A program made the translations under genes and the position numbers. A stretch of DNA of 64,000 nucleotides from Puniceicoccaceae bacterium. GTDB lineage: Bacteria; Verrucomicrobiota; Verrucomicrobiia; Opitutales; JAFGAQ01. The DNA lies in assembly GCA_028285755.1 (NCBI GenBank), contig JANQOQ010000006.1:734184-798183 (forward strand), written 5' to 3'. Positions 48,181-64,000 of this stretch are shown here, piece by piece. The notes beneath the pieces are model-generated. The model was not told where the DNA came from. It did not search any database and worked only from the letters and a program-made list of their open reading frames with translations. Position 1 is the first letter of the stretch, and the number at the start of each line of letters is the position of its first letter.

Positions 48181-49016
48181 TCTTCACCCTCCCACTCATC
48201 GATTTCATATCCGAGCAGCTCATACAGCGCATCATTATGCGGACGATAATGGTCGCGTAACTTATTTAAGGTAGCTGATTTAAGATTAAGTCGTTTTTCC
48301 GAGAATACGCTTTCGAACCACTTTCGATGGAGTGGATACTTACGAAGTTGGTGCTGTTCAATGAGCGACTGATACGTTTTGGGAGTCTCATACTTCCGTT
48401 CGTTTACCCATGGGAAACGGAACTCTGGATCTACACCGATAAATTCACACACCTTGGCAAGCGTTTCACGGGGTTGTTTCAATGTATCCCGTTCATAGAT
48501 GAGTATGAGCATCCTCTCCTTCTCGATCAATGAATACCAGGCCTCAATTTGCTCGGCATAGTACCCACGCTCTAATACGCCCAGATTACTCAGTGCGGCC
48601 TCGTATTTGCGCTCAAAAAGCCTATCTATTGGGATAGTCAGCGGCAAACGGCGGGTCCGAATGGAGTGAATGAGACCCGAACGCGCACGATCTACGGGAT
48701 TCCTGAGCACGACAATATACTTTGCATCGGGGAATTGTCGGTTAAGGTCTTCGTGGACATTCGGGTTATGCCCCTCCCCCGCCTGAGCATTCGCCCAGAG
48801 ATATTCCGGCGTCTTTTCGCCGATAGCCCGACACCCGGCTCCCTCCCTGAAATGAGCCGCATACCAATCGATGCCTTTTTGCAAATTATAAGCTTTATCA
48901 AAGTAATGCACCTCATTCGGATGCATATATATGTCCTTGTGCTCTGAAAGATTTCTCCACAGCCAGGTAGTCCCTGATTTCTGCGCACCCAGAATAAAGA
49001 AATTTGGCAAAATCAT
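48177..49016 (-). CDS. PAPS-dependent sulfotransferase (NDST/HS3ST-like family)
   Basis: 'PNFFILGAQKSGTTWL','EVHYFD','GIDWY','GEKTPEY','LRNPVDRA.S'. Confidence 0.92.
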   Translation of the reverse strand: MILPNFFILGAQKSGTTWLWRNLSEHKDIYMHPNEVHYFDKAYNLQKGIDWYAAHFREGAGCRAIGEKTPEYLWANAQAGEGHNPNVHEDLNRQFPDAKYIVVLRNPVDRARSGLIHSIRTRRLPLTIPIDRLFERKYEAALSNLGVLERGYYAEQIEAWYSLIEKERMLILIYERDTLKQPRETLAKVCEFIGVDPEFRFPWVNERKYETPKTYQSLIEQHQLRKYPLHRKWFESVFSEKRLNLKSATLNKLRDHYRPHNDALYELLGYEIDEWEGED

Positions 49017-49019
49017 TGT

Positions 49020-50516
49020 CTATGGGTATAGGAAGTGGAAATCGTGCTCTACTTTAAAGCCTTTTTGTTTAAGCAAGTGCCCGATTACATGCCGGGCAAC
49101 AGATGTGATGAGTATAAAAGGCTTATTACCGGAACCCCTCAGCTTCTCATCCGGGTGAAATATAGGTCTGTCGTGTAATTGTTTGCCTACCTTGCCTTGA
49201 TCCGAATCCAAATAGGCAAAATCAGTAAATCCATAGCGAAGCAGCAACTCGCCCATCATCTCACCCGCTAAGCCAGCACCCCAAAGAAAAATCTCCCGCC
49301 CCTCAATGTCCGACATAAGTGCCTTCAACGGACGCCCTAACAGCGAACTCAACGCTAACCTTTCAAGCGGCGCGTGTACTCGCTGATCCTTCGATACAGC
49401 TGGAGAATGGTTTTGCAGGAAAGCATACAAATCATCCCGATAATGTTCAAAGCGATACCGCTTTTCATACTCATCGAGAGCCGCCTGCGACATGACTTCG
49501 AGATTCGAACCAATGCGATTCAACGCAGCAGGAATTTCCGTATGCTGGTCAATACATTCTCCACATCCCGGCTGTTCAATCGCCTCACGAAAGTCCGGGT
49601 AACCATTAGTGAGCACGGGCAGACCATGCTTCAGGTAATTCACAATTCGCCCCGAAGAAAAACCGGCTGTTTCCCGATTGATCATGTTTTGGCCATTGAG
49701 CCAGGCATAACCAGCGTCAGCCCCTGCTAGAATATCATCTGCCTCGCCTAACTCATCAAAAAACTCATTGGTAAAAAACACGCGCTCGTAACCATTGGTG
49801 ATAACCAGACTTTCGAGTTCATCCCGGTAAGCCATACCTCGCTCACCGTGAATAAGCAGGCACCAATCTTTGACGCCCTGAATTTGCAGCATAATCTCAT
49901 CCAGCTTATCCGATTTATACGGAAGTCCCAGATGAACCAGAATCCTAAAGTCTTCAGGTATTTTATAGCGTTGATGACAGTATGGGGTGCGTTTTTTTTG
50001 CCCTTCACCAGCGTGAACAAGTGGCAGTATAAATACCGATCGATCATATTCCGGATGGACCTCCCTGAAGATACGCGCCCGCGTCTCTGATTGGATGATC
50101 AACCCAGTAGTATCGGGCAATAGCTGCGACTCTATCCAGGGCAGCTCACGGCTTTCATGACCTGCTGCAATGTAGAAAGGGTCATCGAGATTATAAAGCT
50201 CACAGGAATAGTAGATCGGTTGCGCATCGGGAAACAGGCATTTACACAATTTCAGTCCAAAGGGATCAAACGCAACCATGTGATCATAGGGAATACCTTC
50301 GACCGAGAAACGACTTAGGTAATCATAAGAATCATTGCGAAAATCAAAGTGGCGGAACGGGTATAAGCGGTAAGTTCGGGTATAATCATCGCGGCCTCGC
50401 GTCATATATACATCCACATCACTCTGAGCCGCAACCAGATGGGTAAAGGACAAGTGCGCCGGGTGATACCTTAATGACCTGTTATCGCAAAAAACCGCTA
50501 TCCTGGGGCTATCCAT
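49020..50516 (-). CDS. GT4-like glycosyltransferase with C-terminal Rossmann-like domain
   Basis: 'ADAGYAW','SSGRIVNYLKHGLPV'; C-terminal 'FLWGAGLAG...LDSD..K.G'; paralogue of 31230-32780. Confidence 0.78.
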   Translation of the reverse strand: MDSPRIAVFCDNRSLRYHPAHLSFTHLVAAQSDVDVYMTRGRDDYTRTYRLYPFRHFDFRNDSYDYLSRFSVEGIPYDHMVAFDPFGLKLCKCLFPDAQPIYYSCELYNLDDPFYIAAGHESRELPWIESQLLPDTTGLIIQSETRARIFREVHPEYDRSVFILPLVHAGEGQKKRTPYCHQRYKIPEDFRILVHLGLPYKSDKLDEIMLQIQGVKDWCLLIHGERGMAYRDELESLVITNGYERVFFTNEFFDELGEADDILAGADAGYAWLNGQNMINRETAGFSSGRIVNYLKHGLPVLTNGYPDFREAIEQPGCGECIDQHTEIPAALNRIGSNLEVMSQAALDEYEKRYRFEHYRDDLYAFLQNHSPAVSKDQRVHAPLERLALSSLLGRPLKALMSDIEGREIFLWGAGLAGEMMGELLLRYGFTDFAYLDSDQGKVGKQLHDRPIFHPDEKLRGSGNKPFILITSVARHVIGHLLKQKGFKVEHDFHFLYP

Positions 50517-50804: not shown

Positions 50805-53800
50805 TTAGAACTCGAATGTGCTGGTTAAGATAACCTGGCGCGGGTCCTTAAAACGATAGCGCACAACATTGCCTGCGAGGTCCTTACGGGTTGGAAGGAT
50901 GTCGTCATCGTCAAACAGGTTCCTGACATTCAACTGTATTCTCCAGTTAATCTTATCATCCATAATTTTCCGTCTGTAAATCAGGTGCAAATCTACGGTC
51001 GTATCTGCATCCCGGGTGTGTTCCACATTTACAGTACCGTCTGGATTTATAAAACGGCTTATCGGAGGTGAACTACGCCAGCGCAGGCTAAAACCAGGTG
51101 AGAAACCTTTGAGCGGCGAGTCTTCGGAAAAGGTATAGGTGGTCGTCGCATTCACTCGATGCTTGCTGTCTCCGAATTGCCTGAACCCATTTTGATTGGT
51201 CTCAAAGTCCAGCCCTTCCTGAATAATGGCGATTTGCTCACCAAATGTAGAATCACCATTTTCGGTTACCGTATCCGCAGGTAGCGCCCTCCAAATATTT
51301 TCATTGGCAGCAACGAATGCCTGGGTAAAGGGAGCCCGGTTTGTGGTAATTGAATCCGTGTTGCTGTAGTTCGCCAGGATACGCCAGTTATCAGTGATAT
51401 TGCCCACAAGCTCGAATTCATATCCGCTGGATGCTAGGTCTACAGTGTCTCTTACATTGGAGTCTGTTATTTGTTCATCCAGAGCAATGGCGGCCGGATC
51501 ATTTATCAGCGCATCAGAGCGTATCATTTGATTAATTGCGGTGCGGATGTTTCCTTTATTCAGGTTTACCACATTCGCTCCTACGGTATCAAAATACGTA
51601 GCCGTAACAATCACGCGCTGATCCAATACACTGAAACGCACACCAAAGTCTTCCGTCTCACCTTTTAAATTGGGGAAGAGTTGATCATCTATCGTTCGGT
51701 TAGTGCCTTGGGTATCAAAGGTCTCCGACTGATTGAAGAATACTGAGAGCCATGAGTTAATGTGACCTACTACACCGTAGGTAGTGGTATCTCCCTTGGT
51801 TACCGTAGGTTCATCATCCAGGACAGCTCCTACACGCGCACTGTTTTCAGCGATAATATCAGTATGTCCATAAATGGATACTTCATCTTCACGATAGCCG
51901 AAAGTGGTTACGATACGATCATTCCAGAAATAGTTCTGAGTGGCTATCAGAATGGTGTCGATTTCAGACTTACTTCGTCCAAAACCCTGGGGAATAAGCC
52001 CGGGAGTAACGGTGCCTGTTACCGGAGTTCCCCCGTTTTGATAGAGGGTTAGCTCTTGGACCGCGATAGGGTTATCAAACGGGCTGAGGTGGGCCCGGGT
52101 CCCTCCCGGAGACTGGAAATCCAGGTAAGTGCGGCGGCGGATTCGGTTTTGCCCGTTTCGAATATTTCCCTGATTTTCAAGAGGTGTAAGATTGCCTTCA
52201 TTGAAGTTTTCAGAGCGCCCCTCTTCCTCTTCCATCTGATAGAGAAAAGCAATCTGATGCCTGCCCAGCCAGCCGAGATCCCATTTGTTAAAATCCAGGT
52301 CGTAGGCTGCCGTAGCCCTCCAAATTTGGCGTAAACTGTCCGAAAGGCTGGCACGTAGGAAATCTTCGACATAAAGTTCGCCCAGATTGGGATTGGGAGA
52401 TCCATCGGGCAACTGCTCATTGATATCGACGCGTATAGGCGAATTCCAGTTGATCGGACGGGTCGAAAAGTCGTTGCGTGAAGTATTGTTGTAAGCAAGC
52501 TCAATATTGAGATTATCAAACAGACTCTGTTCCAGGTATACCGAAAAAGTGCTGTAATCCTGATCGAGCAAAGACCCCGGACCCCAAACCGCTGCTTCGC
52601 GGGGTAAGATACTGAAGTCGGTGATCGAAATACCTCCGATAAATTGCCCATCTACAGTGCTTATGCTATTGGAAGCGGACATATCCTCCCAGTCAGCAAG
52701 CGTGCCACCGGTTGGACCGTTTTGGGTATACACCATATAGGTATTGTTATTGGTGTTTCGTGCACCTTCAGGGCGGTTTGTATCTCTTGCGGTTGCAATG
52801 GTCGGTCGGCCATTTTGATCCCAGAGATTGAAACCATTAAAGGGAGCCCAGGGCCTAACGCGTATCTCATCCGTTTCTGAACGTTCGTATTCGAAACGCA
52901 GACGTGTGGAAGCCTGGTCGGATTTGAAAACATTCCAGGTTGCTGCTATGTGGGCCCTCTGCGACTCATAGTCCAGGACATCCTGCCAGCTACCATGTTC
53001 ATCATGCAAAAGGTTCACCCTGAGCGCAATTTTGCCTTCGAGTATTTCACGATTAAAATCGAGCGCCACCCGCCGTTGGTCCCACTCGTCAATACGGAGG
53101 GTTACTGAGTTGAAATCGTTGAACCGTGCCTGTTTCGTGCTGGTGTTAATAACGCCGGATGCTCCTCCACGACCAAAAAGAATCGAGTTGGGACCTCGGG
53201 AAAAATCAATACGCTCGGTATTATAAGAATCGGAACGAAGATTCCATCGGAAGTAGTTACGTGCCTGAATTCCGGTGGGCAGGCCGCGAAGCCTTACACG
53301 TATATTGTTAGTTTCCAGGAAGTTGCCCGTTTGCACATCCGTGGTTTCCTCAAAATCGTTGGATGTATTCAGGCCATATTCTACGGCATCAAAGGTATCC
53401 GCAATTGCCAGATCGTCGAGTAACTCTTTGGTAAATACCGATATAGCCGCAGGCGTATCGGCAAGCTTTGAGTTTAAGCGACTGCCAGCAAGTGTATTGG
53501 TGGCTACGTAGCCGACATCCTCGGATGTGCTGACCTCGAAGGGCGACATAACGAAGATATTTTCATCTTCAAGTGCTTCCTGGGCTACGATACCGCTATT
53601 GCTGGCAACACTCATTGCCAGAAATCCGGTAATTAACTCAAGAATGAGATTTCTTTTTTTCATAGGTTGTGTCGAGTTTGGTTTTGGGTTTGTTTCTCCA
53701 AGAGGGATGATTTGATCCATCTCTATTGAAGAGGTTATACTTGTAACCAACAGTGCACCACTGGCCTCATCCAGGACACATTCGAGCCCTGTATTCAGCA

Positions 53801-54047
53801 ACATCTGCACAACCGTTTCGTAGGGGGTATATCTTCCGGAGACTGCTTGGGTTTCTATCCCCGTAAGCAAATCGGCCCGATAAATAATTTCGAGACCCGT
53901 ATCCCTTGCAAACTGTGTGAGCGTTTCTTTGGCAGCACCTGCTGGGATGTTTACCCATTGCCGCTCCCCATTCGCCCATAACTCGTTTCCCAGGGAGGAA
54001 AACAGGCAAATGACCACGCATAATGATGATGGAAACAAACGTTTCAT
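50805..54047 (-). CDS. TonB-dependent receptor/transducer with N-terminal STN domain (TBDR-1)
   Basis: Signal peptide, STN 'NIPAG.A...L..FA..TG..IIY......T..VSG', plug 'TLAGSRL','RGPNSILFG', C-terminal 'QLNVRNL...TSTFEF'. Confidence 0.93.
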   Translation of the reverse strand: MKRLFPSSLCVVICLFSSLGNELWANGERQWVNIPAGAAKETLTQFARDTGLEIIYRADLLTGIETQAVSGRYTPYETVVQMLLNTGLECVLDEASGALLVTSITSSIEMDQIIPLGETNPKPNSTQPMKKRNLILELITGFLAMSVASNSGIVAQEALEDENIFVMSPFEVSTSEDVGYVATNTLAGSRLNSKLADTPAAISVFTKELLDDLAIADTFDAVEYGLNTSNDFEETTDVQTGNFLETNNIRVRLRGLPTGIQARNYFRWNLRSDSYNTERIDFSRGPNSILFGRGGASGVINTSTKQARFNDFNSVTLRIDEWDQRRVALDFNREILEGKIALRVNLLHDEHGSWQDVLDYESQRAHIAATWNVFKSDQASTRLRFEYERSETDEIRVRPWAPFNGFNLWDQNGRPTIATARDTNRPEGARNTNNNTYMVYTQNGPTGGTLADWEDMSASNSISTVDGQFIGGISITDFSILPREAAVWGPGSLLDQDYSTFSVYLEQSLFDNLNIELAYNNTSRNDFSTRPINWNSPIRVDINEQLPDGSPNPNLGELYVEDFLRASLSDSLRQIWRATAAYDLDFNKWDLGWLGRHQIAFLYQMEEEEGRSENFNEGNLTPLENQGNIRNGQNRIRRRTYLDFQSPGGTRAHLSPFDNPIAVQELTLYQNGGTPVTGTVTPGLIPQGFGRSKSEIDTILIATQNYFWNDRIVTTFGYREDEVSIYGHTDIIAENSARVGAVLDDEPTVTKGDTTTYGVVGHINSWLSVFFNQSETFDTQGTNRTIDDQLFPNLKGETEDFGVRFSVLDQRVIVTATYFDTVGANVVNLNKGNIRTAINQMIRSDALINDPAAIALDEQITDSNVRDTVDLASSGYEFELVGNITDNWRILANYSNTDSITTNRAPFTQAFVAANENIWRALPADTVTENGDSTFGEQIAIIQEGLDFETNQNGFRQFGDSKHRVNATTTYTFSEDSPLKGFSPGFSLRWRSSPPISRFINPDGTVNVEHTRDADTTVDLHLIYRRKIMDDKINWRIQLNVRNLFDDDDILPTRKDLAGNVVRYRFKDPRQVILTSTFEF

Positions 54048-54171
54048 GCATCAGTTTAAGCAGTATATTTACCTGCGCTAAACACGGGGCTGTGGGGGTT
54101 ACAACAAGCAACATCGCCCTTCGAGATGCCACTGCAGGGAATTTCCGCCAAAAGAAATTTCACTTTTTTAG

Positions 54172-55209
54172 TTATTTGGGGTGATGGCTTAAAATAATGG
54201 TTCCATCTTCTAAGCGCTCGGCCTCTATCTCAAAACCTATATTCAGGAGTCTCAAAAAACCATTAATATTATCAGACCGCATAGAACCACTGATATTAAG
54301 CTCCCCTACCGCATCTTCTGCAAAGCTCAGCTGGACCTCATTTAGTCGGTTAAATTCCTGAATGATGTTCTGGAGCGGCTGATCATCAAAAATGAGCATA
54401 CGATGCTGCCATGCATACACTCTTTTAATTTCGTCCTTTGTAAGCGTCGCAATCTCAAGCTCATCATCATTGGGATCTCTGGAAATAATGGCACGTTGCT
54501 TAGCGATCAATTGCGGTATGTTAGCCTGCGAATGATTCGCATCAGTACGGTTATTCCTGGCGAGTTCCACTACCCCTTCTTCAACCAATACCTCCACCGT
54601 ACTGGATTCCAATTTAATACTGAAGGCAGTTCCGATCGCCCTAACCTGGTAATCCTCCACATATACGGTAAAAGGCCTTGCCTGATCCTTAGCGACCTGG
54701 AAATAAGCTTCACCCGAGCTGAGGTAAACCGCTCGTTGCTCATTGTTATAAGCCACATCCACCTGACTCGTTGGCTGAGTTTTTATGGAGCTGCCATCTT
54801 CCAGAACTTGATGATTAACCTGCGAAGCACTGGCAACCTCGGCTTGCATGCCTAATGATTCCTCTTGTTGAAACGGCAAAGTGCTCACCCATAGCGCCAA
54901 TAATAGCACCGCAGCTGCAACCAATCCCCTTTTAACCCATGGGTTTTCATACCATACACGCTTTGGCGCAAGTAAATCCGGATTAGGGGTGGAACTGAAT
55001 TCAGGGCACCAGGCAGCAAGTTTATTAAGGCGCTGCCAATCCCCCTGCAGTCGGCTGATTGCATCTCCATGGGCAGGATCTTGCGCCAGCCAATCGAGAT
55101 ATTGATCTTGCTCATTCGCGGTAAGACCCCTATCCAGCCGCAAAACCCACTGGGATGCGTCTATCTCAACCTCGTCTAGCTCAGGATTCTGTTTATCCTC
55201 TTGATTCAT
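54172..55209 (-). CDS. fecR: FecR family anti-sigma/transmembrane sensor
   Basis: 'ASQWVLRL','WL..DP.H', one TM, 'LEDGS','GEAYFQVAKD..RPF','AIGTAF','W...MLIF'. Confidence 0.92.
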   Translation of the reverse strand: MNQEDKQNPELDEVEIDASQWVLRLDRGLTANEQDQYLDWLAQDPAHGDAISRLQGDWQRLNKLAAWCPEFSSTPNPDLLAPKRVWYENPWVKRGLVAAAVLLLALWVSTLPFQQEESLGMQAEVASASQVNHQVLEDGSSIKTQPTSQVDVAYNNEQRAVYLSSGEAYFQVAKDQARPFTVYVEDYQVRAIGTAFSIKLESSTVEVLVEEGVVELARNNRTDANHSQANIPQLIAKQRAIISRDPNDDELEIATLTKDEIKRVYAWQHRMLIFDDQPLQNIIQEFNRLNEVQLSFAEDAVGELNISGSMRSDNINGFLRLLNIGFEIEAERLEDGTIILSHHPK

Positions 55210-55215
55210 ATTTGG

Positions 55216-55740
55216 CTAGTTCGCATTTCGCTTAAAATATAATGATAATTTTCTCAAACCAATGGCTCCCTGGGACTCAACGGTGTTTTCAGATATACCC
55301 AATTCTTTGGCGACCTGCTTTTGGGATAGCCCATAGATTTTACGGAGTGTTAATACCTGGCGACATCTTTTTGGTAATGTTTGAATAGCCTTGGTTAATA
55401 GTTCTAGCTCTTCACTGTGTGTGACTTCTTTACTGACATCTGCGTAATTATCGAGGACATCTACCAATTGAAAATCCGCCAAAAAAACTTCCTGCCTACT
55501 CATTGATTTCTTGCACTTGCTCAGTGCGATATTTCGGGCGGTAGCAAATAAATAAGCCTTGGGAGAATTTATATGGGTAGACTCATGTGCTTTGAGAACC
55601 TTTAAGTATGCCTCCTGAACAATGTCTTCAACATCCCGAATATCACTGAACCGTGTTTTGATCCAGTTGCAGAGCAATTCCTCATGAGGTTCCAAATACT
55701 CCTCAAACCATTTACTTTGCCTTGTAAATAGGTCACTCAT
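55216..55740 (-). CDS. FecI-like ECF sigma-70 factor
   Basis: 'EDIVQEAYL','PKAYLF..ARN','LP.RCRQV..LRK..GLSQK.VA..LGISENTVE'. Confidence 0.93.
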   Translation of the reverse strand: MSDLFTRQSKWFEEYLEPHEELLCNWIKTRFSDIRDVEDIVQEAYLKVLKAHESTHINSPKAYLFATARNIALSKCKKSMSRQEVFLADFQLVDVLDNYADVSKEVTHSEELELLTKAIQTLPKRCRQVLTLRKIYGLSQKQVAKELGISENTVESQGAIGLRKLSLYFKRNAN

Positions 55741-55984
55741 TAGTGTTATTCAAATAAGACTTTATCTTGGGGTCAATGTAGAACAGTGTGTGCTTACTTT
55801 AAGCTCGATATTGAAGTTCGATAACTTATTCTGGTATTTAAAAAGCTTTTGCTTCATATGAAACTATCTCGTAATTCACGTTTTAGTAGTTTTGAAGAGC
55901 AATCATCTGTATTAGCAATGTAAATTTTTCGGCAGCTCTATTTTGCGCCAGATCCAAAAAAGCTATTTAGATTAAAATTTAGCC

Positions 55985-56524
55985 ATGCCTATCCCAGAAT
56001 ATAAGCCATCCAGCTGGTTCGAAAAGGAGATTAAAATCCATGAACCGTCACTAAGGGCTTATGTATGTGGTAAAATACCCAAAAGTGCGGATGCAGATGA
56101 CATCATCCAAGAGACCTATGTGCGCATTCTAAAGCTAAAAAACAAGGAAGAAATCGCATCTCCCAAGAGCCTGCTTTTCACTATAGCAAGAAATATAATC
56201 AATGATTTGTTCCGCAAAAAATACGTGTCCAAAACAATCTCTTTGGGGGAAATGGAGCTCTTAAGCGTCCTATCTCATCAAGCCGGAAATACAAACGAAT
56301 ATACAATCGGATTAGATGAAATTAAAATACTCCAAGACGCTATTAAGTCTTTGCCGCCGAAGTGCAGGAAAATTGTTTTATTACGCAATTATGAAAACTT
56401 GTCTTACAAAGAAATTGCAGCGCGGCTGAATTTATCAGTTAAGACTGTTGAAAATCAGCTGATCATTGGTATTAAAAAGTGTAGGAAGTATCTGGAGAGA
56501 CAAGGAGTGCGTAAGGAGGGGTAA
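55985..56524 (+). CDS. FecI-like ECF sigma-70 factor
   Basis: 'DDIIQETY','PKSLLF.IARN','LPPKCR','LSYKEIAARLNLSVKTVENQ'. Confidence 0.93.
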   Translation: MPIPEYKPSSWFEKEIKIHEPSLRAYVCGKIPKSADADDIIQETYVRILKLKNKEEIASPKSLLFTIARNIINDLFRKKYVSKTISLGEMELLSVLSHQAGNTNEYTIGLDEIKILQDAIKSLPPKCRKIVLLRNYENLSYKEIAARLNLSVKTVENQLIIGIKKCRKYLERQGVRKEG

Positions 56525-56526
56525 CG

Positions 56527-57609
56527 ATGAGCTCAAAGGACAATCAGAACGATCGAGAAAATGCTGAATCGAAGTCATCCTTCGATACGGCGGCTGAATT
56601 GTTTATCAAGAGTGAGGGTGAACTTACTGAATTAGAAAGTCAGCGAATCATTCAGGAATTGGAGAATGATCCGGAGTTGCTGGAGGAGGTTAAGGAGTTT
56701 TCAAAAACCAAGCATTTATTCAAACAACTGCCACCTGAGTTCGTAGATGACATACTCGGAGAAGAAGAGAGAAAGCCTGTATTATTTGCACAATGGAGTT
56801 GGCAATGGGGTGTAGGCTTAGCCGCTTGCTTGCTGCTAATCATGAGTATCGCAGTCTGGATAGGGGGTCAAAATAGCGGATCAGTTGATGTGGTTGAAAC
56901 GAGACTGACTTCTGAAAACTTACCAACTACTGAGATATTGCCCGATGGCTCGCTCTTGCGGCTCAACTCAAATGCATTATTGGAAGTCAGCTACACCAAA
57001 GATTTAAGAAGGGTCAACTTAGTCCGGGGAGAAGCCCACTTTAATGTCAGCAGTGATGAGCTTCGACCTTTCATCGTGAATGTAGGCGGAGTCAATATCC
57101 AGGCAGTAGGCACAGCCTTTAATATTAAGTGGGATGAACAGATTGATGTTATCGTTACCGAAGGCACCGTACTAATTACTACCGAAGATTCAGGCAGTAT
57201 CATTACCCAGGTAAGTGAAGAATTAAGCTCATCCTATGAGTTGGGGTTTCAAAAGTCCGAAGGCTTTTTGAGCCAAGGTCAGCGGGCTGAGATTTTAATT
57301 CTGCCTGAAAGCAAGCAACCCACTTTTGAAGTATTTACGGCCGATACAGAAGAAGTGGATGCTCGATTAAGCTGGCAAGCCTCATTACTCACGCTCACGG
57401 GAGATACCCTGAGTGATATTGCCTCTAGTTTTCAGCAAAAAACAGGTTATCGTCTCATCATTACAGATCCTGCCCTCAATGATTTGCGCATCGGTGGGCG
57501 CTTCCCCAGCTCAGACGTCTTTGATTTTTTAAGAATACTTGAAGTCGGATATGGGATCCCATGGCAGCAAACGGATGAGGGCGTATTTATGGTTGGGGAT
57601 CTTGAATAA
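56527..57609 (+). CDS. fecR: FecR family anti-sigma/transmembrane sensor
   Basis: One TM 'WGVGLAACLLLIMSIAVW','LPDGS..LN','GEAHF.V....RPF.V','AVGTAF','LSW','IGGRF'. Confidence 0.92.
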   Translation: MSSKDNQNDRENAESKSSFDTAAELFIKSEGELTELESQRIIQELENDPELLEEVKEFSKTKHLFKQLPPEFVDDILGEEERKPVLFAQWSWQWGVGLAACLLLIMSIAVWIGGQNSGSVDVVETRLTSENLPTTEILPDGSLLRLNSNALLEVSYTKDLRRVNLVRGEAHFNVSSDELRPFIVNVGGVNIQAVGTAFNIKWDEQIDVIVTEGTVLITTEDSGSIITQVSEELSSSYELGFQKSEGFLSQGQRAEILILPESKQPTFEVFTADTEEVDARLSWQASLLTLTGDTLSDIASSFQQKTGYRLIITDPALNDLRIGGRFPSSDVFDFLRILEVGYGIPWQQTDEGVFMVGDLE

Positions 57610-57775
57610 ATAACTAATTAAAAAAGTTTTGGGGGTAAAATTCACTCAACCCGACGTATGACGCGTCTTTGGCAGCCCTATGCTCCAAAGTCGTGTCAAC
57701 CCCGTGAATATTAACCCCAAATACATATATTTTGACAATTTAGAGTCCTGTTTACACTCTGATGAAACCAACGAT

Positions 57776-60700
57776 ATGTTTTTGCGTTCATTCATTTGGC
57801 TTACCCTTGCGCAAAATCTAATCCATATGCCTGTGAGCGCAAACGAACAGGCTGGAGCAGATGCTTCTACAAGCAATCCCCAAAGTTCGGTTGTTTTCAA
57901 TATTGCGTCCAAAGATGCTGAGGAAGCAATTATCGAGTTTGTGGATCTTGTTGATATACCGGTGATCTATCTGATCGATGAAATTACCGGTATAAAGCTA
58001 AATGCTGTGCGTGGGGAAATGAAGCCCGAGGTAGCGATCCGACTTATGGTAGAAGGAACGGCTCTTGAAGTGGAACAGGACACTAAGTCCGGCACACTTC
58101 TCTTAAAGCTTCGAGACCGCAACTTGTACCCGGAGAATGGGAATGACAGGGACACCACTGAAAGTGTTGAACCCAAACTAATCACACCCATGACTGAAAA
58201 AAACAGATCAAATCGTTTAAGAAACTTATTCGCGGCCATGATGATGGCGTTACTACCCCCGGCGGGTGAAATGGTCGCTCAGGACGACTTGGAAGATGAG
58301 GAAAATATATTCCTTATGAGTCCATTTACAGTGTCAACCGATGCCGATACCGGATATCGGGCTCAAAACACTCTCGCAGGAGGTCGTCTCTCTACCCGCT
58401 TGGAAGATACCCCCTCTGCCATACAGGCACTGACTACCGTATTCATCAACGATATTGCCGCAACTGACTTTATTCAGGCGAGTCGCTATGCACTCAATGC
58501 GGTGAATATTCAGGATGTAGCGGGTATCCAGATTTTTAATGACTATCGCATAGATTTTCGCGGTATTGGTGGAAATTTCCAGGCGAGAAATTACTTCCAA
58601 TGGTATATTAACTCTGACAATTATTCGGCAGAGCAGCTTCAATTTGCACGGGGGCCTAATTCCATTGTGTTCGGGGATGCGGGAGTTGGAGGTCTCTCCA
58701 ATATTGATACCAAGCGTGCCACCAATGGTGTGTTTACTGAACTGCAGGCACAATTAACCAGTTGGGGAGGCGGGGGTCGCCTTACGCTGGATCATAATCG
58801 CACCTTAGTTGAAGATACCCTATTCGTAAGAGCAGGTGCCATGATCGACCACTCCGACGGCTGGCGCGATAATGAGTCCTACGAACGCGATGGCTATTTT
58901 GCCACGGCTACCTGGCGTCCCCTGGAAAAGACTGAAGTGCGTGTAGAAGTTGAAAACGGTAGCAATGCACAATTTTGGGGATCCATGTTGCGGGATCAGG
59001 TATCCGGCTGGGACGGCGTTACAACGGTGAGCGAACGCATGAGCGGCCATATGGGCGACCTAAGGCGACTCGGTAATGATTACCTGGTCTGGAACCCCAG
59101 TAACCCCGAAATCGGTATCGTCAACTGGCAGGGTTGGGGGCAAACCCGGGCCGCGGGCAACCAAACCTCCAATTTCCTGACGAACAACCCATTTAGCAGT
59201 AATCGCTACCCCACGCTGCCGGACGAGGAATATAATTTTCAGGCGCCCAATCGGGTAGTGGATATGGATTTTGAAACGCAGACCATATTCCTGGAACAGC
59301 AGGTCGGCGACAGTCTATTTTTCGAGATCGCCTATAACCATACGGTAAACGAACGTTATATCCAACGTTCCTTCTGGGATAATTACCGCATCGACGTAAA
59401 TGAATTCATGCCGGATGGAATTACGCCCAACCCTCATTTCCTGGAACATTACGCAGATGCAAACCCATTCGAAGATTTACAGAGCAATGAACATGACCAC
59501 TACCGGGTATCCGCAGCATACGTGTGGGAAGGCATGGGCATGCGCCATCGTTTTCTGGCATCCTTTCAACAAAGAGACGGACGCTTTGATCTCTACGAGT
59601 GGCGGCATTCACGTACGAACGGGTCACGAGTCAGACTGGATGATTCGCGTAACCGCATCCGCATCCGCCGATACGAAAGTCAGTTGGCTGACGATTTCAC
59701 CTACGGCATGACGGATGCCATCAGTGGTATCGACGTGAAGCGCTGGCTAAGACGCCGCAATGGCAATGAGCAAAGCCTCACAAGCTACCAGGTGGCTGCA
59801 AACAGTGATTGGCTTAACGGAAGACTGACTTCCATCCTCGGATGGCGATACGATGAGCTCACCGTTGATAGCTTTGACCGAATTATCGATCCTGACACGC
59901 GTGAGGTCACTGGCACGACCCCGTTGGAGAGAGATCGCGAGGAAGATAATACAAGCCTGACAGCAGGTCTCGTTTATGACCTCACCGACACCTTTAGTCT
60001 GGTTGCCAATTATGGTGAATCCTATCTGCCGCAATCAGAACGACTGGATATTAACGGTAGGATAATCGGAGGCCGTAATAGTGAAGGTATGGACTTTGGC
60101 ATCCGGGCAACCTTTTTTGAAGGTAAGTTATACACAGTAGTGAATTACTACACGAACGAGGAAAACCAGGTGACCCAGGGCGGCCAATCCGGGAATATTA
60201 ATGAAACCTGGCAAATCATTAATGAGAACCTCAATCAAAACAATCCTGAAGTTCAGGATGGCTATAATGACACCTTCTCCCGGGAAGCACAAGGCTGGGA
60301 GCTTGAAATTATTGGTAATATCACTGAGCAATGGCGGGTTAACTTTAACATCGCTTTCCCCGAAACCGAGCAAACAGGAGGATTCTCGGATACCATCGAC
60401 TATGTTGCACAGAACCGTGCCACCTGGGTCGCAGCCGTGGATGAGCTGAACTCCCTGGGCCTGACTGCAGAAGCAGATGATATCCAGGATAACATCGTGG
60501 GAATCGATCGTGCCGTGACCAACTTTGCAGAGGGTCGTACGCTGAACGGGCTCTTTGACTACCAGGCAAATATTTACACGCGCTATGATTTTGCCAAAGA
60601 TGGCAAATTCAGCGGATGGTTTATTGGCGGGGGTGCTAACTTCCGCGGCGATCGCCTTGCCACCAACCGGGATGGAGACGCCTTCGACTACATATACAGC

Positions 60701-60931
60701 GATGCTTATACGCTCATAAACTCCGTTATCGGTTATAAGACCACGCTCTGGGGGAAAGACTTCCAGGTACAGTTCAACGTAGATAACCTCTTTGATGAGC
60801 AATCTGACCAAATCAGTAATGGTTCCCGCATAAGAACGATAACAGTTGAAGGCGAAACACTCGAATTAGCGCAAAACCGTTTTTTCCTTACTCCTCGTCG
60901 TATGAAGCTGACGGCAACTCTTCGTTTCTAA
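57776..60931 (+). CDS. TonB-dependent receptor/transducer with N-terminal STN domain (TBDR-2)
   Basis: Signal peptide from ATG 57776 (ORF opens at 57680), STN 'FNIAS.DA...I..F......VIY....I.G.K..AV.G', plug 'TLAGGRL','RGPNSIVFG', C-terminal 'QFNVDNL...TATLRF'. Confidence 0.93.
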   Translation: MFLRSFIWLTLAQNLIHMPVSANEQAGADASTSNPQSSVVFNIASKDAEEAIIEFVDLVDIPVIYLIDEITGIKLNAVRGEMKPEVAIRLMVEGTALEVEQDTKSGTLLLKLRDRNLYPENGNDRDTTESVEPKLITPMTEKNRSNRLRNLFAAMMMALLPPAGEMVAQDDLEDEENIFLMSPFTVSTDADTGYRAQNTLAGGRLSTRLEDTPSAIQALTTVFINDIAATDFIQASRYALNAVNIQDVAGIQIFNDYRIDFRGIGGNFQARNYFQWYINSDNYSAEQLQFARGPNSIVFGDAGVGGLSNIDTKRATNGVFTELQAQLTSWGGGGRLTLDHNRTLVEDTLFVRAGAMIDHSDGWRDNESYERDGYFATATWRPLEKTEVRVEVENGSNAQFWGSMLRDQVSGWDGVTTVSERMSGHMGDLRRLGNDYLVWNPSNPEIGIVNWQGWGQTRAAGNQTSNFLTNNPFSSNRYPTLPDEEYNFQAPNRVVDMDFETQTIFLEQQVGDSLFFEIAYNHTVNERYIQRSFWDNYRIDVNEFMPDGITPNPHFLEHYADANPFEDLQSNEHDHYRVSAAYVWEGMGMRHRFLASFQQRDGRFDLYEWRHSRTNGSRVRLDDSRNRIRIRRYESQLADDFTYGMTDAISGIDVKRWLRRRNGNEQSLTSYQVAANSDWLNGRLTSILGWRYDELTVDSFDRIIDPDTREVTGTTPLERDREEDNTSLTAGLVYDLTDTFSLVANYGESYLPQSERLDINGRIIGGRNSEGMDFGIRATFFEGKLYTVVNYYTNEENQVTQGGQSGNINETWQIINENLNQNNPEVQDGYNDTFSREAQGWELEIIGNITEQWRVNFNIAFPETEQTGGFSDTIDYVAQNRATWVAAVDELNSLGLTAEADDIQDNIVGIDRAVTNFAEGRTLNGLFDYQANIYTRYDFAKDGKFSGWFIGGGANFRGDRLATNRDGDAFDYIYSDAYTLINSVIGYKTTLWGKDFQVQFNVDNLFDEQSDQISNGSRIRTITVEGETLELAQNRFFLTPRRMKLTATLRF

Positions 60932-60965
60932 TACGATCATAGGATCCAACTAACACGATTATATT

Positions 60966-61002
60966 GGAATGCCCTAACCTTTCGGTTAGGGCATTTCCTT
61001 TA
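60966..61002 (+). terminator. Intrinsic terminator/stem-loop after TBDR-2
   Basis: Stem AATGCCCTAACC/GGTTAGGGCATT with TTTC loop, followed by TCCTTT. Confidence 0.75.
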
Positions 61003-61077
61003 AATTCATTTGCATGGATATTGACCATCATAACATCTAGAGGGAAACGACATCTTCCTTATCAAAAAATCAACTTC

Positions 61078-62160
61078 ATGAAAAAAATCATCCTGGCTTT
61101 ACTCCTAACTACTGCCATACATGCGGAACCCTTGAGCGATACTTTGGCTAAGATCTATCCATCCGATAAGCCACTGATCCGACACCTGTGGACCCGTGTT
61201 GCTGACAGTGGGGCTATATTGCGTGGCACGGAAGCTGTTGAGATATCCGCAGACGGCAACCTCGTAGCATCCTGCTCGAAGTTTGGCTACGACGTGATGG
61301 TGTGGCGAGCGGCAGATGGCTCTCTGTTATGGCACTCGCAATCACCGGCAGAGCTCGAAATCGTCTATTTCTCACCTGACAATCAATATTTGGCTTCCGG
61401 GGGTGAAGATTATTATGTGCGCATCTGGGAAGTCGCTACCGGGGAACTTTTACACGAATTAAAACATGATCATGGCCTGGACGGCCTGTGCTGGTCGCAC
61501 GATGGGAATATTTTGGCCTCAGGTTCAGAGGGCGGCGACTTATACCTCTGGAATACTGAAACCTGGACGCTCAAAGACCGGGTTAACGCGGGCACAGTGA
61601 TCAATTCAGTGCAATTCACCTCAGACGATCAACAAATACTGACAGGCGGTAACGAAAAACATCCTGACTTTCCCGCATCCAATAAAGGAATGCGGCTTGG
61701 AACCGTGAAAGTATGGAATACAGCTGACCTATCATTGGCAGAAAATTATCCGGGGCATACCAAATCAGTGAAATCAGCACGCCTATCGACAGATGAGAGC
61801 CTGATCATCAGCGGTTCCTTCGATAATACGATCAAAATTTGGGACCGAACAACCCGTAAAATCAAACACAGCATGGCCATGCCGGGAAATGTGGAGATCG
61901 TAACCTTCTCACCCTGTGGGCATTTCATCTACGTCGGGGGTCAATACCACGGTATATGGGTCTACAGCACCCAGACCTACGAGAAAGTATTGGAAATTGA
62001 AAGCTCGCCGGTTGAGTATATCGACTTCACAAAAAACGGTCGCTTAATGGCCACCGCCCAGGAGAAATCAGGGGTAATCTCACTTTATACCTTTGAGCAT
62101 AAGCAGGGCTTAAGCGGCCAATTTATAAACAGCCTGCTATCAAATCCTGACCTTAACTGA
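61078..62160 (+). CDS. Secreted WD40-repeat beta-propeller protein
   Basis: Signal peptide 'MKKIILALLLTTAIHA'; repeats 'FSPD..LASGGED..VRIWE','GHT..V','ISGSFDNTIKIWD'. Confidence 0.88.
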   Translation: MKKIILALLLTTAIHAEPLSDTLAKIYPSDKPLIRHLWTRVADSGAILRGTEAVEISADGNLVASCSKFGYDVMVWRAADGSLLWHSQSPAELEIVYFSPDNQYLASGGEDYYVRIWEVATGELLHELKHDHGLDGLCWSHDGNILASGSEGGDLYLWNTETWTLKDRVNAGTVINSVQFTSDDQQILTGGNEKHPDFPASNKGMRLGTVKVWNTADLSLAENYPGHTKSVKSARLSTDESLIISGSFDNTIKIWDRTTRKIKHSMAMPGNVEIVTFSPCGHFIYVGGQYHGIWVYSTQTYEKVLEIESSPVEYIDFTKNGRLMATAQEKSGVISLYTFEHKQGLSGQFINSLLSNPDLN

Positions 62161-62423: not shown

Positions 62424-64000
62424 CTAGAATTCAAAGGTGCTGCGTAGCGTCCAGGTCATGGGCGGAGCGATTCTCCAAGCAGAAATCGTCCCGTCCGGGT
62501 TGGTCTCCGCGGGGATTAGCTCATCTCCAACCCCGATATTGCGAACATTGAGCTGAAGAGTCCAATCTATGCCCTTGGAAAGCGCCTTACGGTAACTTAC
62601 CCAGAGGTCATAGTTGGTTTCTGAAGGGCCACGATGGGGCCGGTTCAAATCGGGGATATCCCCCAGATCCGGATCGCGGATGTAACCGGAGCCGATTACC
62701 GAATCCCCTTGGTAACGAATCGCACCCCCTACTCCAAAGTTGGCCAACTTACCCTCCAGGAAGGTATAATTGGTGATCAGATTCAGGCGATGCTCGCGGA
62801 CCTCCGGCTGGCTGAAGCCATCCCGTGCAACCTGCTGGCGAACACGTGTAAAGAAGCCGAGTGAACGCTCCTGAAGGGTTTCACCCTGGCCATCCACGAA
62901 TACCTGACCCGCAGGGCCCTGAATAATGGGCTCGATACGCTGGGCCACTTCGAGCGCATCTCTGGCTGTGTTGCTCGTGACAACTTCCTGTTGTGCGTAG
63001 TTGAGGGCAATTCGCCAGTTACTGAGGGGGTTATAAGTCATTTCAAGCTCGTAACCTTCCGATACCACATCCGTCGTTTGCAACACTACCCCGCCGTAAG
63101 CCAGATGTGTTAGACCCAGATTCGGATCGCTTGGGTTGATAAAAGCCAGATCAAACGCCTCCCTGAGGAAGTTAAAATCATTGGAATTATACCAATCCCT
63201 GAACGCCTGGGCATTCGCCTCATTGCCTACGTTATCACTGTCAATATTGAGCCAGGCTTCGGCCACACCGTCGCGGATAAGCCCATGTAAGGCACCTCTC
63301 ATATCAACACTGGCACCGGCGGTATCACTCTCGTATTTTGCCAGGCGGAAGGATAGCTTGCCATCCAGCGCATCTACGATCACGCCATACTCCTTGGTGT
63401 TTCCACTGGGAGATTCCAGAGGGTCACCATAGATATTTAGGCGTTGGGCAGTCGGTTGAAACGTTTCTGAAGTATTGTAGAACAGACGTGCGTCAATTCC
63501 ATGAAAACGCTCACCGTCCCGCATGGAATCAGGCAGGCGGGCTACCATTCCCCAACTGAAAGTACTTTCCGTAACCTCAAGTTGCGGAGTATCACCCACT
63601 TCTGCAATATCCAGGAAAAACCCGGTCTCATCAGGGGTGGAAGTGGGAGCACGGAAACTCTTGTATTCATCTTCACGCCAACCCAGAGTGCTCACAATGG
63701 CCCCATACAGGAACTCGCTATGCACGATCGCCACCTTGGAATCCAGCTCCTCACGGAAGCTCTGAACCGCACCCCGATTGTTAATCGTGGACTTATCAAA
63801 CTCCTGGTTACGAAACACCTGACTCTCCAGTTGCTGCCATTGGGCGGTTTCCACATTATAGAATCTTACCGGTATGGTCTTTTGATCCGGCAGCTCTGCA
63901 TTAAAACCAACGGCACTGATATGGCCCGCTGTAGGAGTAGTCACCCGATCCCCTAAATACACCATCAGGTCATATTCACGTGCTCCCTGGTGCACCAGCT
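62424..64000 (-). CDS. TonB-dependent receptor, C-terminal half (5'-truncated by window edge; TBDR-3)
   Basis: Frame open at the window end; 'GWRED','NTSETF','SEGYELE','NWRI','QLNVRNI', terminal 'RSTFEF'. Confidence 0.9.
   Translation of the reverse strand, partial: LVHQGAREYDLMVYLGDRVTTPTAGHISAVGFNAELPDQKTIPVRFYNVETAQWQQLESQVFRNQEFDKSTINNRGAVQSFREELDSKVAIVHSEFLYGAIVSTLGWREDEYKSFRAPTSTPDETGFFLDIAEVGDTPQLEVTESTFSWGMVARLPDSMRDGERFHGIDARLFYNTSETFQPTAQRLNIYGDPLESPSGNTKEYGVIVDALDGKLSFRLAKYESDTAGASVDMRGALHGLIRDGVAEAWLNIDSDNVGNEANAQAFRDWYNSNDFNFLREAFDLAFINPSDPNLGLTHLAYGGVVLQTTDVVSEGYELEMTYNPLSNWRIALNYAQQEVVTSNTARDALEVAQRIEPIIQGPAGQVFVDGQGETLQERSLGFFTRVRQQVARDGFSQPEVREHRLNLITNYTFLEGKLANFGVGGAIRYQGDSVIGSGYIRDPDLGDIPDLNRPHRGPSETNYDLWVSYRKALSKGIDWTLQLNVRNIGVGDELIPAETNPDGTISAWRIAPPMTWTLRSTFEF

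Follow-up and report, generated by a model that had tools for sequence, protein, structure and literature searches.

Probable nested start sites and second signal peptides in STN-bearing TonB-dependent receptors of a Puniceicoccaceae bacterium

Why should the gene of a TonB-dependent receptor contain, in frame behind its signaling domain, what looks like the start of a second, complete receptor gene? The question is raised by two receptors, TBDR-1 and TBDR-2, encoded in the 64,000-nucleotide stretch of Puniceicoccaceae DNA analyzed here (the window). An initial annotation had described each as a signal peptide (SP1) and an STN domain followed by an internal ATG and a second signal peptide (SP2); the open reading frames and coordinates of both genes agree with this layout, and the pattern proved far more general than two receptors, since 35 of the 36 STN-bearing (long) paralogues of this genome keep an ATG at the head of SP2. 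Judged from sequence, a single gene of this kind probably provides both a sensor-plus-transporter and a plain transporter.

Architecture of the nested receptors and their signaling neighbors

TBDR-1 is encoded on the reverse strand by a long open reading frame of 1080 amino acids (50805..54047) that comprises SP1, STN, a linker, the internal start, SP2, a TonB box, plug and barrel. SP1 (MKRLFPSSLCVVICLFSSLGNELWA; 53973..54047, reverse strand) was recognized from its sequence, with a KD of 2.67 in its best 10-residue hydrophobic window. The STN domain (residues 30-103; 53739..53960, reverse strand) was not called by Pfam at threshold, with an E-value of 0.05 (below the cut-off) for TBDR-1 and no match for TBDR-2. 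Despite this, the presence of the domain claimed earlier was confirmed for TBDR-1 at the level of the fold: the AlphaFold2 model has a pLDDT of ~90 over these residues, its best Foldseek matches are the signaling domains of PupB, FpvA, FoxA, FecA and PupA (TM up to 0.86, rmsd 1.7 Å), and phmmer matches it to FemA residues 21-94. The linker (53664..53738, reverse strand) is G-poor and A/C-rich with low predicted RNA structure; it is at the same time the leader of the internal start and contains the motif AACCCAAA (53690-53683). The internal ATG (Met129; 53661..53663, reverse strand), the proposed start of a short isoform, opens SP2 (MKKRNLILELITGFLAMSVASNSGIVA; 53583..53663, reverse strand), for which cleavage is predicted before Q156 and which in alignments matches the genuine signal peptides at the N-termini of this genome's STN-less receptors. 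Next come an acidic stretch and a TonB-box-like motif (QEALEDENIFVMSPFEVST; 53526..53582, reverse strand); S168, P169 and F170 are invariant in alignment A1. Here begins the homology to solved TonB-dependent transporters, of which FetA, FoxA and FpvA match residues 161-414 (phmmer); Pfam Plug scores 3e-7.

TBDR-2, on the forward strand, extends over 1051 amino acids from the ATG at 57776 (57776..60931), in a frame open from 57680. Its putative STN-like domain (approximately residues 39-112; 57890..58111, forward strand) aligns with that of TBDR-1 in A1. The motif AACCCAAA (58170..58177, forward strand) lies 20 nt upstream of the internal ATG at 58190 (Met139), which opens SP2 (MTEKNRSNRLRNLFAAMMMALLPPAGEMVA; 58190..58279, forward strand) with predicted cleavage before Q169, and the acidic stretch with its TonB-box-like motif (QDDLEDEENIFLMSPFTVST; 58280..58339, forward strand) was placed by sequence and by A1. 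A TonB-box/plug HMM built from this genome matches TBDR-2 at 2.1e-55; Pfam Plug reaches only 0.099. In both receptors the internal Met is followed by a basic n-region, a hydrophobic stretch, V-A↓Q, an acidic run and then (V/L)MSPF(E/T)VST, with signal-peptide character judged by charge, hydrophobicity and the -3/-1 residues. The 3' part of a third receptor (62424..64000, reverse strand) is cut by the window end, with its 5' part outside; in the whole genome it too is a nested long form (C15 ORF, 1224 amino acids, internal MKNIPKKNNF...).

The genes of TBDR-1 and TBDR-2 each directly follow a gene for a FecR-type anti-sigma factor. In the TBDR-1 unit (reverse strand) this lies at 54172..55209 (Pfam FecR 1.3e-17, DUF4880, FecR_C), next to an ECF sigma factor at 55216..55740 (Sigma70_r2, Sigma70_r4_2, Sigma70_ECF); in the TBDR-2 unit (forward strand) the ECF sigma factor, assigned by Pfam, is encoded at 55985..56524 and FecR at 56527..57609 (FecR 2.1e-16, FecR_C). 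The STN module and the FecR/sigma signaling genes are linked throughout this genome: a FecR-like open reading frame stands directly 5' of 34 of 36 long receptors and an ECF sigma factor in the vicinity of 35 of 36, whereas both counts are 0 of 22 for the short, STN-less receptors with a full N-terminal match that served as the comparison set. These short receptors begin just as the internal start does, in leader motif, ATG, layout of the signal peptide and A↓Q(D/E) site, and share with the long forms the acidic run, the (L/M)SPF.V motif and the plug; unlike the long forms they have neither the SP1-STN module nor the signaling neighbors, and their signal peptides are more hydrophobic.

Conservation and start-site signatures of the internal ATG

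Among the long paralogues, the linker flanking the internal Met is unalignable. The conservation of this Met together with a second signal peptide, which the initial annotation had proposed to examine by alignment, was borne out in a diverged set of 132 representatives (149 of 150 matches clustered at 50% identity, minus 17 without a recognizable TonB box): hydrophobic segment and Met are both present in 97 and both absent in 21, while nine have the segment only and five the Met only (Fisher p 5e-13, a value overstated, as are the other p-values, because paralogues and relatives share ancestry and are not fully independent). Of the 106 segment-bearing sequences, 95 have a Met within the 19 residues immediately preceding the h-region, vs 17 for an equal window further upstream. 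In five of the nine Met-less segment-bearing representatives the position holds V or L, compatible at the protein level with GTG or TTG; these nine hint either at a role of the segment in the long protein or at non-ATG starts. The degenerate members G000 C3_m_265753 and L119 have lost all three elements together: Met, h-region and A↓Q site. Long and short forms alike conserve the A-x-A↓Q-like site. The h-regions of SP2 are less hydrophobic than the true signal peptides with which short receptors begin (12-residue KD 1.92 vs 2.31, p = 0.0004), which could reflect partial decay rather than compromise.

The leader carries signatures of its own. Of 35 long forms, 25 have AACCC at a distance of 4-35 nt upstream from their internal ATG, vs 509 of 16028 control internal ATGs (3.2%); the motif also precedes the true starts of nine of the 22 short receptors. 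Upstream of internal ATGs it falls in three reading frames (16/6/3), so that what is conserved is the nucleotide sequence rather than an encoded Asn-Pro peptide. Over the whole genome, AACCC has its maximum at positions -25..-11 relative to start codons, and TAACCC is the most enriched frequent 6-mer upstream of starts, while no enrichment of AGGAGG was detected before start codons; Shine-Dalgarno-scarce initiation has been reported for some Verrucomicrobia in the accessible part of one study (PMC10783764). The element may be translational or part of a promoter: it lies at a median distance of 17 nt from the ATG, and alignment of 188 start-proximal instances revealed no conserved -35-like partner and no second block.

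Predicted RNA structure around the internal ATGs is weak, with a mean MFE of -1.7 kcal/mol (n=35; -30..+30 window, as for all values here), compared with -4.9 kcal/mol at short-receptor starts (n=22), -6.7 kcal/mol at crude genome starts (n=599) and -12.7 kcal/mol at control internal ATGs (n=800). The 90-nt minimum-energy fold of TBDR-2 has the internal AUG base-paired, although this fold does not exceed shuffles in stability (z -0.5). G makes up 9.2% of the upstream sequence at internal ATGs vs 26% at control internal ATGs, although this A-rich, G-poor composition could in part simply follow from the polar, low-complexity nature of a linker in the periplasm. The upstream (long) starts have a mean MFE of -8.3 (n=27) with AACCC in 3 of 27, and in nine of the 36 long forms SP1 is not preceded by an ATG; AACCCC-like elements lie ~55-70 nt 5' of the long starts of TBDR-1 and TBDR-2. 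By these features the internal ATG has the look of a functional start of translation, and the upstream start looks the weaker of the two. The earlier view of the linker as a translation leader read through as Pro/Asn/Thr gains from the occurrence of AACCC before STN-less receptor starts and its genome-wide enrichment before starts.

Nested forms occur in at least five Opitutales families (f1, f17, f21, f22, f38) and in cultured strains, including Pelagicoccus and DG1235. In the comparison of the leader that the initial annotation had proposed, AACCC lies upstream of 10 of 11 internal ATGs examined in other genomes (mean MFE -3.5). Many Opitutales STN receptors, mostly of f22, have a plain linker instead of an internal start, and some relatives encode stand-alone SP-STN proteins between FecR and receptor, the separate-gene arrangement that had also been raised.

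Two proposed products from one gene, and the alternatives

The explanation that we favor, and hold to be reasonably probable, is that each gene uses internal initiation to make, besides a small amount of a long sensor isoform, a short isoform in abundance that serves transport only. Such genes would have originated when an SP1-STN module was fused in frame onto a complete receptor gene, and selection then preserved the translation-initiation region, the ATG and the Sec signal peptide of that gene, so that the fused gene has two starts. The upstream start, in an ordinary or weak context and non-ATG in some paralogues, would produce the long isoform, from which SP1 is cleaved and in which STN, the ~25 amino acid linker, an uncleaved SP2, TonB box, plug and barrel remain; this isoform would talk to the adjacent FecR/ECF sigma pair. 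The internal ATG, in an unstructured, G-poor, A/C-rich leader with AACCC(T/A)(A/G)A, an element found at many true starts of this genome, which is poor in Shine-Dalgarno sequences, would give the short isoform, exported via SP2, cleaved before Gln and then identical in layout to the STN-less receptors. Use of the internal start, by ribosomes or from an internal promoter, is what we infer from these signatures, as are the isoform ratio and its regulatory benefit: if true, each gene would supply few sensors and many transport-only copies, uncoupling the stoichiometry of sensing from the capacity for uptake.

The same fusion could instead have left a relic, with only the long product made and SP2, Met and leader tolerated as a long flexible linker with which STN could bridge the periplasm to FecR. 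A fusion origin is plausible given the stand-alone SP-STN genes, SP2 and the signal peptides of short receptors are of the same type (L088, L091), and the lower hydrophobicity of SP2, its decay in some members and the plain linkers of many f22 transducers all fit a relic. We nevertheless consider this unlikely, because a relic should lose its ATG quickly, yet the ATG is kept in nearly all paralogues and in 97 of 106 segment-bearing representatives; Met and h-region disappear jointly, the leader motif is retained in three frames, and the internal-start region is less structured than genuine starts. Still less probable is that SP2 serves solely the long protein, for instance as a membrane-associating or partner-binding helix beside the TonB box, which we rate as very improbable: the nine segment-bearing representatives without Met and a short AlphaFold2 helix at TBDR-1 residues 134-143 agree with it, but that helix is of low confidence (pLDDT ~50-60), all parts of a Sec signal peptide are present in the right order and match the N-termini of STN-less paralogues, and the conservation of Met and leader would go unexplained.

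The initial annotation had left the choice between internal initiation and release of STN at the second site. The former is favored by the ATG, the leader, the low predicted RNA structure and the co-loss of Met and segment. Release, in which signal peptidase or a periplasmic protease would cut the SP1-exported precursor at or near the SP2 A↓Q site into free STN and an STN-less receptor, appears improbable to us. It could draw on the equal conservation of that site in long and short forms and on the two FoxA bands of a prc mutant, as given in the accessible part of that report (PMC11637429), but leaves the conserved ATG, the nucleotide-level motif and the open RNA structure unexplained; by Sec topology, moreover, a hydrophobic segment following an exported domain would be expected to enter the translocon N-out, so that its C-terminal cleavage site would not face signal peptidase. 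We give similarly little weight to AACCC as a promoter or transcription-start element from which the short form would arise on its own short-leader mRNA, possibly regulated differently from the long one. The narrow AACCC-to-ATG distance genome-wide, its presence in the non-coding leaders of short receptors and the AACCCC-like elements before the long starts speak for this, whereas the lack of a partner block in the aligned instances and the very short leaders that a 17-nt spacing would mean speak against it; as two products would still result, it is a variant of internal initiation rather than a true alternative.

Comparison with known receptors and internal-initiation genes

TBDR-1 shares with transducers of the FecA/FpvA/FoxA/PupB type an N-terminal STN of the same fold, with FoxA, FpvA and FetA a homologous TonB-box region, plug and barrel start, and, like TBDR-2, with FecI-FecR-type cell-surface signaling the position of the receptor gene directly after an anti-sigma and ECF sigma pair. 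In classical transducers there is a single signal peptide, and STN is joined to the TonB box by a short linker, as is consistent with the solved chains matched here, whereas the nested receptors described here have an insertion of ~50-70 amino acids that combines the leader of a start site with a conserved ATG and an entire second signal peptide. Our literature search found no description of a second start and export signal after STN within a receptor gene. SusC-like transducers of Bacteroidota also carry an N-terminal STN extension and are linked to ECF sigma/anti-sigma pairs; these are glycan-type receptors of polysaccharide degraders in which Shine-Dalgarno sequences are little used, a setting that the nested receptors probably share, but descriptions of an internal start or a second signal peptide in them are not known to us.

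In the internal-initiation pairs known to us, both products occupy the same compartment, with the same targeting or none. In the nested receptors, by contrast, each isoform would have its own predicted cleavable signal peptide, and a whole signaling domain would distinguish them. What is common to both, as far as the accessible parts of reports on the long and short forms of ClpB and on two-polypeptide endolysins go, is an in-frame nested start in a single gene that gives a full-length and an N-terminally shortened product (PMC6168691, PMC9430671, PMC11005335). The closest parallel in a receptor is FoxA of Pseudomonas aeruginosa, for which the accessible part of Wettstadt et al. 2024 describes two bands in a prc mutant with the sizes expected with and without the signaling domain, proposes cleavage by CtpA as the source of the latter, and holds the ratio of the forms to matter for protection of the anti-sigma factor (PMC11637429). 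There too a single gene is proposed to yield both forms, but the short FoxA would arise post-translationally, whereas a nested gene, with an internal start and an export signal of its own, would make its short form directly.

Receptor layout in the window and across the genome

The region holds two divergent units, in each of which a gene for a large TonB-dependent receptor is accompanied by those for an ECF sigma factor and a FecR-type anti-sigma factor. TBDR-1 (50805-54047, minus strand) and TBDR-2 (from the ATG at 57776 to 60931, plus strand) are both preceded by their sigma factor and FecR genes; the edge of the window truncates a third receptor (62424-64000, minus strand), which in the genome is of the same nested kind. 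The coordinates of the initial annotation proved exact for the internal ATGs (53663, Met129 of TBDR-1; 58190, Met139 of TBDR-2), as did its description of a G-poor stretch with AACCCAAA ahead of both (53690-53683, minus strand, in TBDR-1; 58170-58177, plus strand, in TBDR-2). Behind each internal Met, a basic n-region leads into a hydrophobic stretch and the site V-A|Q, after which come an acidic run and the sequence (V/L)MSPF(E/T)VST.

A signalling (STN) domain had been assigned to both receptors from the sequence. For TBDR-1 the assignment held: residues 30-103 are folded with a pLDDT of about 90 in an AlphaFold2 model of residues 1-196, Foldseek matched this domain to the signalling domains of PupB, FpvA, FoxA, FecA and PupA (E down to 2e-6, TM up to 0.86, rmsd about 1.7 Å), and phmmer aligned it with residues 21-94 of FemA (7.8e-7). 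In TBDR-2 it is an alignment of ten N-terminal regions (A1) that points to the domain. The Pfam threshold for STN was not reached, the value for TBDR-1 lying below the cut-off (E 0.05). The plug (PF07715) was recognized by Pfam in TBDR-1 (3e-7; 31.4 bits at a cut-off of 23.9) and, in TBDR-2, by an HMM built on the TonB-box/plug region of this genome's own receptors (2.1e-55; Pfam only 0.099). In TBDR-1, sequence similarity to the plug and the initial barrel strands of FetA, FoxA and FpvA spans residues 161-414, residue 414 being the last one reached by PDB sequence matches. The motif (L/M)SPF(E/V)V, in which S, P and F are invariant in A1, sits where homology to solved TonB-dependent transporters begins, and from this position we take it to be a candidate TonB box. 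Pfam TonB_dep_Rec gave no report at E ≤ 0.01; for the candidate barrel, the roughly 900 residues after the second signal-peptide-like segment (SP2) and the terminal Phe fit the length and ending of a 22-strand beta-barrel, with sequence matches reaching only to residue 414. Because the STN fold matches signalling domains and residues 161-414 match known receptors, the window receptors are cell-surface-signalling transducers carrying an extra insert.

Among the neighbouring genes, a WD40 beta-propeller protein with a signal-like N-terminal segment (60964-62160, plus strand; Pfam WD40 7.6e-32) directly follows TBDR-2, and putative methyltransferase-type, sulfotransferase-type and large glycosyltransferase-like ORFs, judged by eye, lie upstream of TBDR-1 in window coordinates (47416-50516).

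Scanning 2113 stop-to-stop ORFs of at least 300 residues with the TonB-box/plug HMM identified 64 receptors in the genome: 36 long forms with the STN module in front, 22 short, STN-less receptors with a full N-terminal match, and 6 partial matches that were left out of the long and short counts. An ATG heading a signal-peptide-like segment between STN and TonB box is present in 35 of the 36 long forms, and in the sole exception (contig C3, ORF m_265753) loss of the Met went along with loss of the hydrophobic stretch and of the A|Q site. The nested pattern is a family trait and no coincidence of two genes. The 22 short receptors open with the same layout of leader, ATG, signal peptide, A|Q(D/E), acidic run and (L/M)SPF.V. 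Presence of the STN module tracks sigma factor/FecR signalling linkage: a FecR-like ORF lies directly upstream on the same strand in 34/36 long but 0/22 short receptors, and an ECF sigma factor gene lies within 2.5 kb in 35/36 versus 0/22.

Signal-peptide character was scored by hand-coded measures of charge, hydrophobicity and the residues at -3 and -1. SP2 has a mean net charge of +2.5, a best 10-residue KD hydrophobicity of 2.15 (2.50 in true signal peptides) and, in nearly all long forms of the genome, the site (A/V/S)-x-A|Q. By its sequence, the predicted SP2 thus combines the basic n-region, hydrophobic h-region and small -3/-1 residues of a Sec-type signal. A lipoprotein signal was rejected, there being no lipobox Cys at +1, and so was a Tat signal, the twin-arginine motif not being general. 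Compared with the signal peptides of the short receptors, SP2 is less hydrophobic (KD over 12 residues 1.92 vs 2.31, p = 0.0004), which we infer to be a compromise that would allow export of a short form yet avoid arresting export of the long one.

Start-site context of the internal ATG

Start contexts were compared by the mean minimum free energy (MFE) of the predicted RNA fold from -30 to +30 and by the G content of the 30 nt upstream. The internal ATGs of the long forms (n=35) lie in the least structured context, with -1.7 kcal/mol and 9.2% G, followed by the starts of the short receptors (n=22; -4.9 kcal/mol, 9.7%), crude genome starts (n=599; -6.7 kcal/mol, 17.5%) and the upstream ATGs of the long forms, which head the first signal peptide, SP1 (n=27; -8.3 kcal/mol, 17.3%). 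The last MFE was obtained despite choosing the least structured candidate ATG per gene. Internal ATGs within the receptor barrels (n=406; -11.8 kcal/mol, 26%) and control internal ATGs (n=800; -12.7 kcal/mol, 26%) are far more structured. The two starts of the long genes also differ in their codons: the internal one is ATG in 35/36, whereas 9/36 have no ATG before SP1, seven of these offering GTG or TTG only and two (contig C11, offsets 229170 and 433910, plus strand) having no candidate start codon (ATG, GTG or TTG) among the 30 codons that precede SP1. The upstream start of the long forms therefore looks ordinary or weak.

The upstream leader of TBDR-2 (57640-57789, plus strand) is predicted to fold at -37 kcal/mol (z -4.8 relative to shuffles) with its AUG paired, and that of TBDR-1 is indistinguishable from shuffles; the internal AUG of TBDR-2 is also paired, but in a weak predicted fold. 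Possibly the structured TBDR-2 leader controls the long form at the level of translation or transcription. Several other FecR-receptor spacers of the genome also have inverted repeats, placed immediately 5' of the upstream start.

Shine-Dalgarno sequences show no enrichment ahead of crude gene starts in this genome (AGGAGG 0.58%, background 0.48%). The most enriched frequent 6-mer before starts is TAACCC (4.6-fold), with AACCC peaking at -25 to -11, and the fuller form AACCC(T/A)(A/G)A is enriched 11-25 nt before start codons genome-wide, as exemplified by the elements at 53690-53683 and 58170-58177. Within -35 to -4, AACCC precedes 25/35 internal ATGs of the long forms and 9/22 true starts of short receptors but only 509/16028 control internal ATGs (3.2%); the upstream ATGs of the long forms have it in 3/27 cases. 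In the long forms the element is read in all three frames (16/6/3; translated as N-P, K-P, E-T-Q or E-P-K), so it is the nucleotide string rather than the peptide that is conserved.

The element may be a lineage-specific start-site or promoter signal. As the -35 element of an ECF promoter it was rejected as the main reading, because it also precedes genes without sigma factor or FecR neighbours and lies too near the ATG; an alignment of 188 start-proximal instances revealed no second conserved block that could serve as a -35-like partner of AACCC. A probe motif did not find the 16S rRNA 3' end, sought for comparison with AACCC, in this assembly. With a conserved start codon and a start-site context of Met retention, AACCC and low structure, the internal ATG bears the marks of a used start site.

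Distribution in Opitutales and origin of the nested genes

At E ≤ 1e-3 the A1 profile retrieved 13611 cluster representatives, a number that falls to 2444 at E ≤ 1e-10. Of the top 150, 149 were examined, and the 132 with a recognizable TonB box were kept. A hydrophobic segment was present in 106 of these, 97 with and 9 without the Met, and absent from the remainder, 5 with and 21 without it (Fisher p 5e-13, the 132 representatives being kin and so not independent). The representatives are at most 50% identical to each other, their list leans to SP2-bearing sequences because A1 included SP2, and counts of paralogues and relatives are likewise not independent. In 95/106 sequences a Met falls within the 19-residue window just ahead of the hydrophobic stretch, as against 17/106 for an equal window further upstream; among the nine Met-less sequences that have the segment, five have V or L at the Met position. 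At the DNA level in other genomes, AACCC lies within 40 nt upstream of 10/11 internal ATGs examined (mean MFE -3.5). Internal Met, second signal peptide and AACCC leader, whose conservation the initial annotation had proposed to check, are thus retained in relatives in these proportions.

The pattern occurs in both A/T-rich (N/K-rich) and G/C-rich (P/A-rich) lineages. In the order sample, 48 of 301 genomes match at E ≤ 1e-15, and nested forms were found in at least five Opitutales families (f1, f17, f21, f22 and f38), many f22 transducers having a plain linker without SP2. The class sample (301 genomes) gave one matching genome outside the order, its match being a short receptor. Named records of relatives belong to Opitutales, Puniceicoccaceae, Pelagicoccus and Opitutaceae, and cultured carriers of nested genes include Pelagicoccus mobilis KCTC 13126, Pelagicoccus sp. 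SDUM812005, strain DG1235 and Puniceicoccaceae K14. A related-loci search started from a 4-row alignment gave mostly STN-less receptors, its patterns being from the TonB-box region. Two further degenerate nested forms were seen: L119 (genome G004) has lost Met, hydrophobic stretch and A|Q site together, as in ORF m_265753, and L165 (Pelagicoccus mobilis) keeps the Met with a decayed hydrophobic stretch and structured RNA (-12.9 kcal/mol).

The search for STN as a separate ORF, likewise proposed in the initial annotation, was successful: some relatives have stand-alone ORFs of signal peptide, lipobox and STN between FecR and the nested receptor. Those of f38 genomes (among them L112, 910-1266, and L117, 955-1356, both plus strand; 113-147 residues, lipoprotein-type signal LLSAC or LLTGC) stand beside a nested STN receptor, so that these units hold two STN domains, one of them free. 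Two loci of one metagenome-assembled genome (L032 and L037; OZ252288.1) have clearly different STN domains but an SP2-to-TonB-box segment that is identical over the stretch compared, and L088 and L091 are short receptors with a signal peptide of the SP2 type. These three observations fit an origin in which a complete receptor gene acquired a signal peptide-STN module by fusion, the two being joined at the leader of the receptor gene. Both pairs, L032/L037 and L088/L091, further suggest that the module was shuffled, or gained and lost, at this junction.

Two possible products per gene and comparison with known transducers

The best reading of these sequences is that each gene would yield two products, a long sensor and a short transporter. 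The long form would be exported via SP1, its STN reaching FecR and its SP2 staying uncleaved within the protein. The short form, whether translated from the mRNA of the long form or from a transcript begun at an internal promoter, would start at the internal ATG, be exported via SP2 and, after cleavage before the Gln, equal an ordinary receptor. In Bacteroidota, start choice in Shine-Dalgarno-poor systems relies on open, A-rich leaders. If start choice works in the same way here, an open A-rich leader followed by an ATG inside an ORF would be hard for ribosomes to ignore. For some Verrucomicrobia, one study describes initiation in which Shine-Dalgarno sequences are scarce (PMC10783764).

Reading SP2, Met and leader as relics of the ancestral receptor gene agrees poorly with the retained ATG and with an AACCC element kept in three frames. 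Alternatively, proteolytic cleavage at SP2 might yield the STN-less receptor, as the initial annotation had also considered. This has a functional precedent in FoxA, two forms of which are reported in a prc mutant, one of them lacking the signalling domain, with CtpA proposed to remove it (PMC11637429). Cleavage at SP2 leaves the start-site features unexplained, and by its topology the site would be poorly placed for signal peptidase. A purely structural function of SP2, confined to the long protein, would account for the nine Met-less representatives and explains little else.

To the two-product reading we attach a wider proposal, which we consider about evenly balanced between right and wrong: that Opitutales surface-signalling receptors are two-product genes in which a weak upstream start gives few STN sensors and the bulk transporter comes from a strong internal start that needs no Shine-Dalgarno sequence and heads a signal peptide of its own, the sensor:transporter ratio being set at translation initiation within one ORF, and that AACCC(T/A)(A/G)A is an undescribed start-site signal of the lineage, acting in thousands of genes (2444 representatives at E ≤ 1e-10). 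If true, this would add a new regulatory layer to trans-envelope signalling, splitting sensing and uptake between two isoforms with their own export signals, and it touches on the open question of how the ratio of signalling domain to anti-sigma factor regulates the pathway. The FoxA study proposes that forms with and without the signalling domain both matter (PMC11637429).

The nested architecture is widespread: this genome has 36 such genes, and carriers belong to at least five Opitutales families that comprise polysaccharide degraders, marine ones among them. Cultured strains make it directly accessible to experiment. Gene callers may choose either start of nested genes, and proteomic quantification by barrel peptides cannot separate sensor from transporter. 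The conserved leader also offers a handle on start-codon choice in Shine-Dalgarno-poor Verrucomicrobiota.

Full-text searches of the main text of openly accessible papers turned up no TonB-dependent receptor for which a second signal peptide or an internal start is described. In the classical TonB-dependent transducer, a single signal peptide precedes the STN and a short linker joins STN and TonB box, whereas here the two are set apart by a further ATG with its signal-peptide-like segment; the nested receptors are a variant, and not typical transducers.
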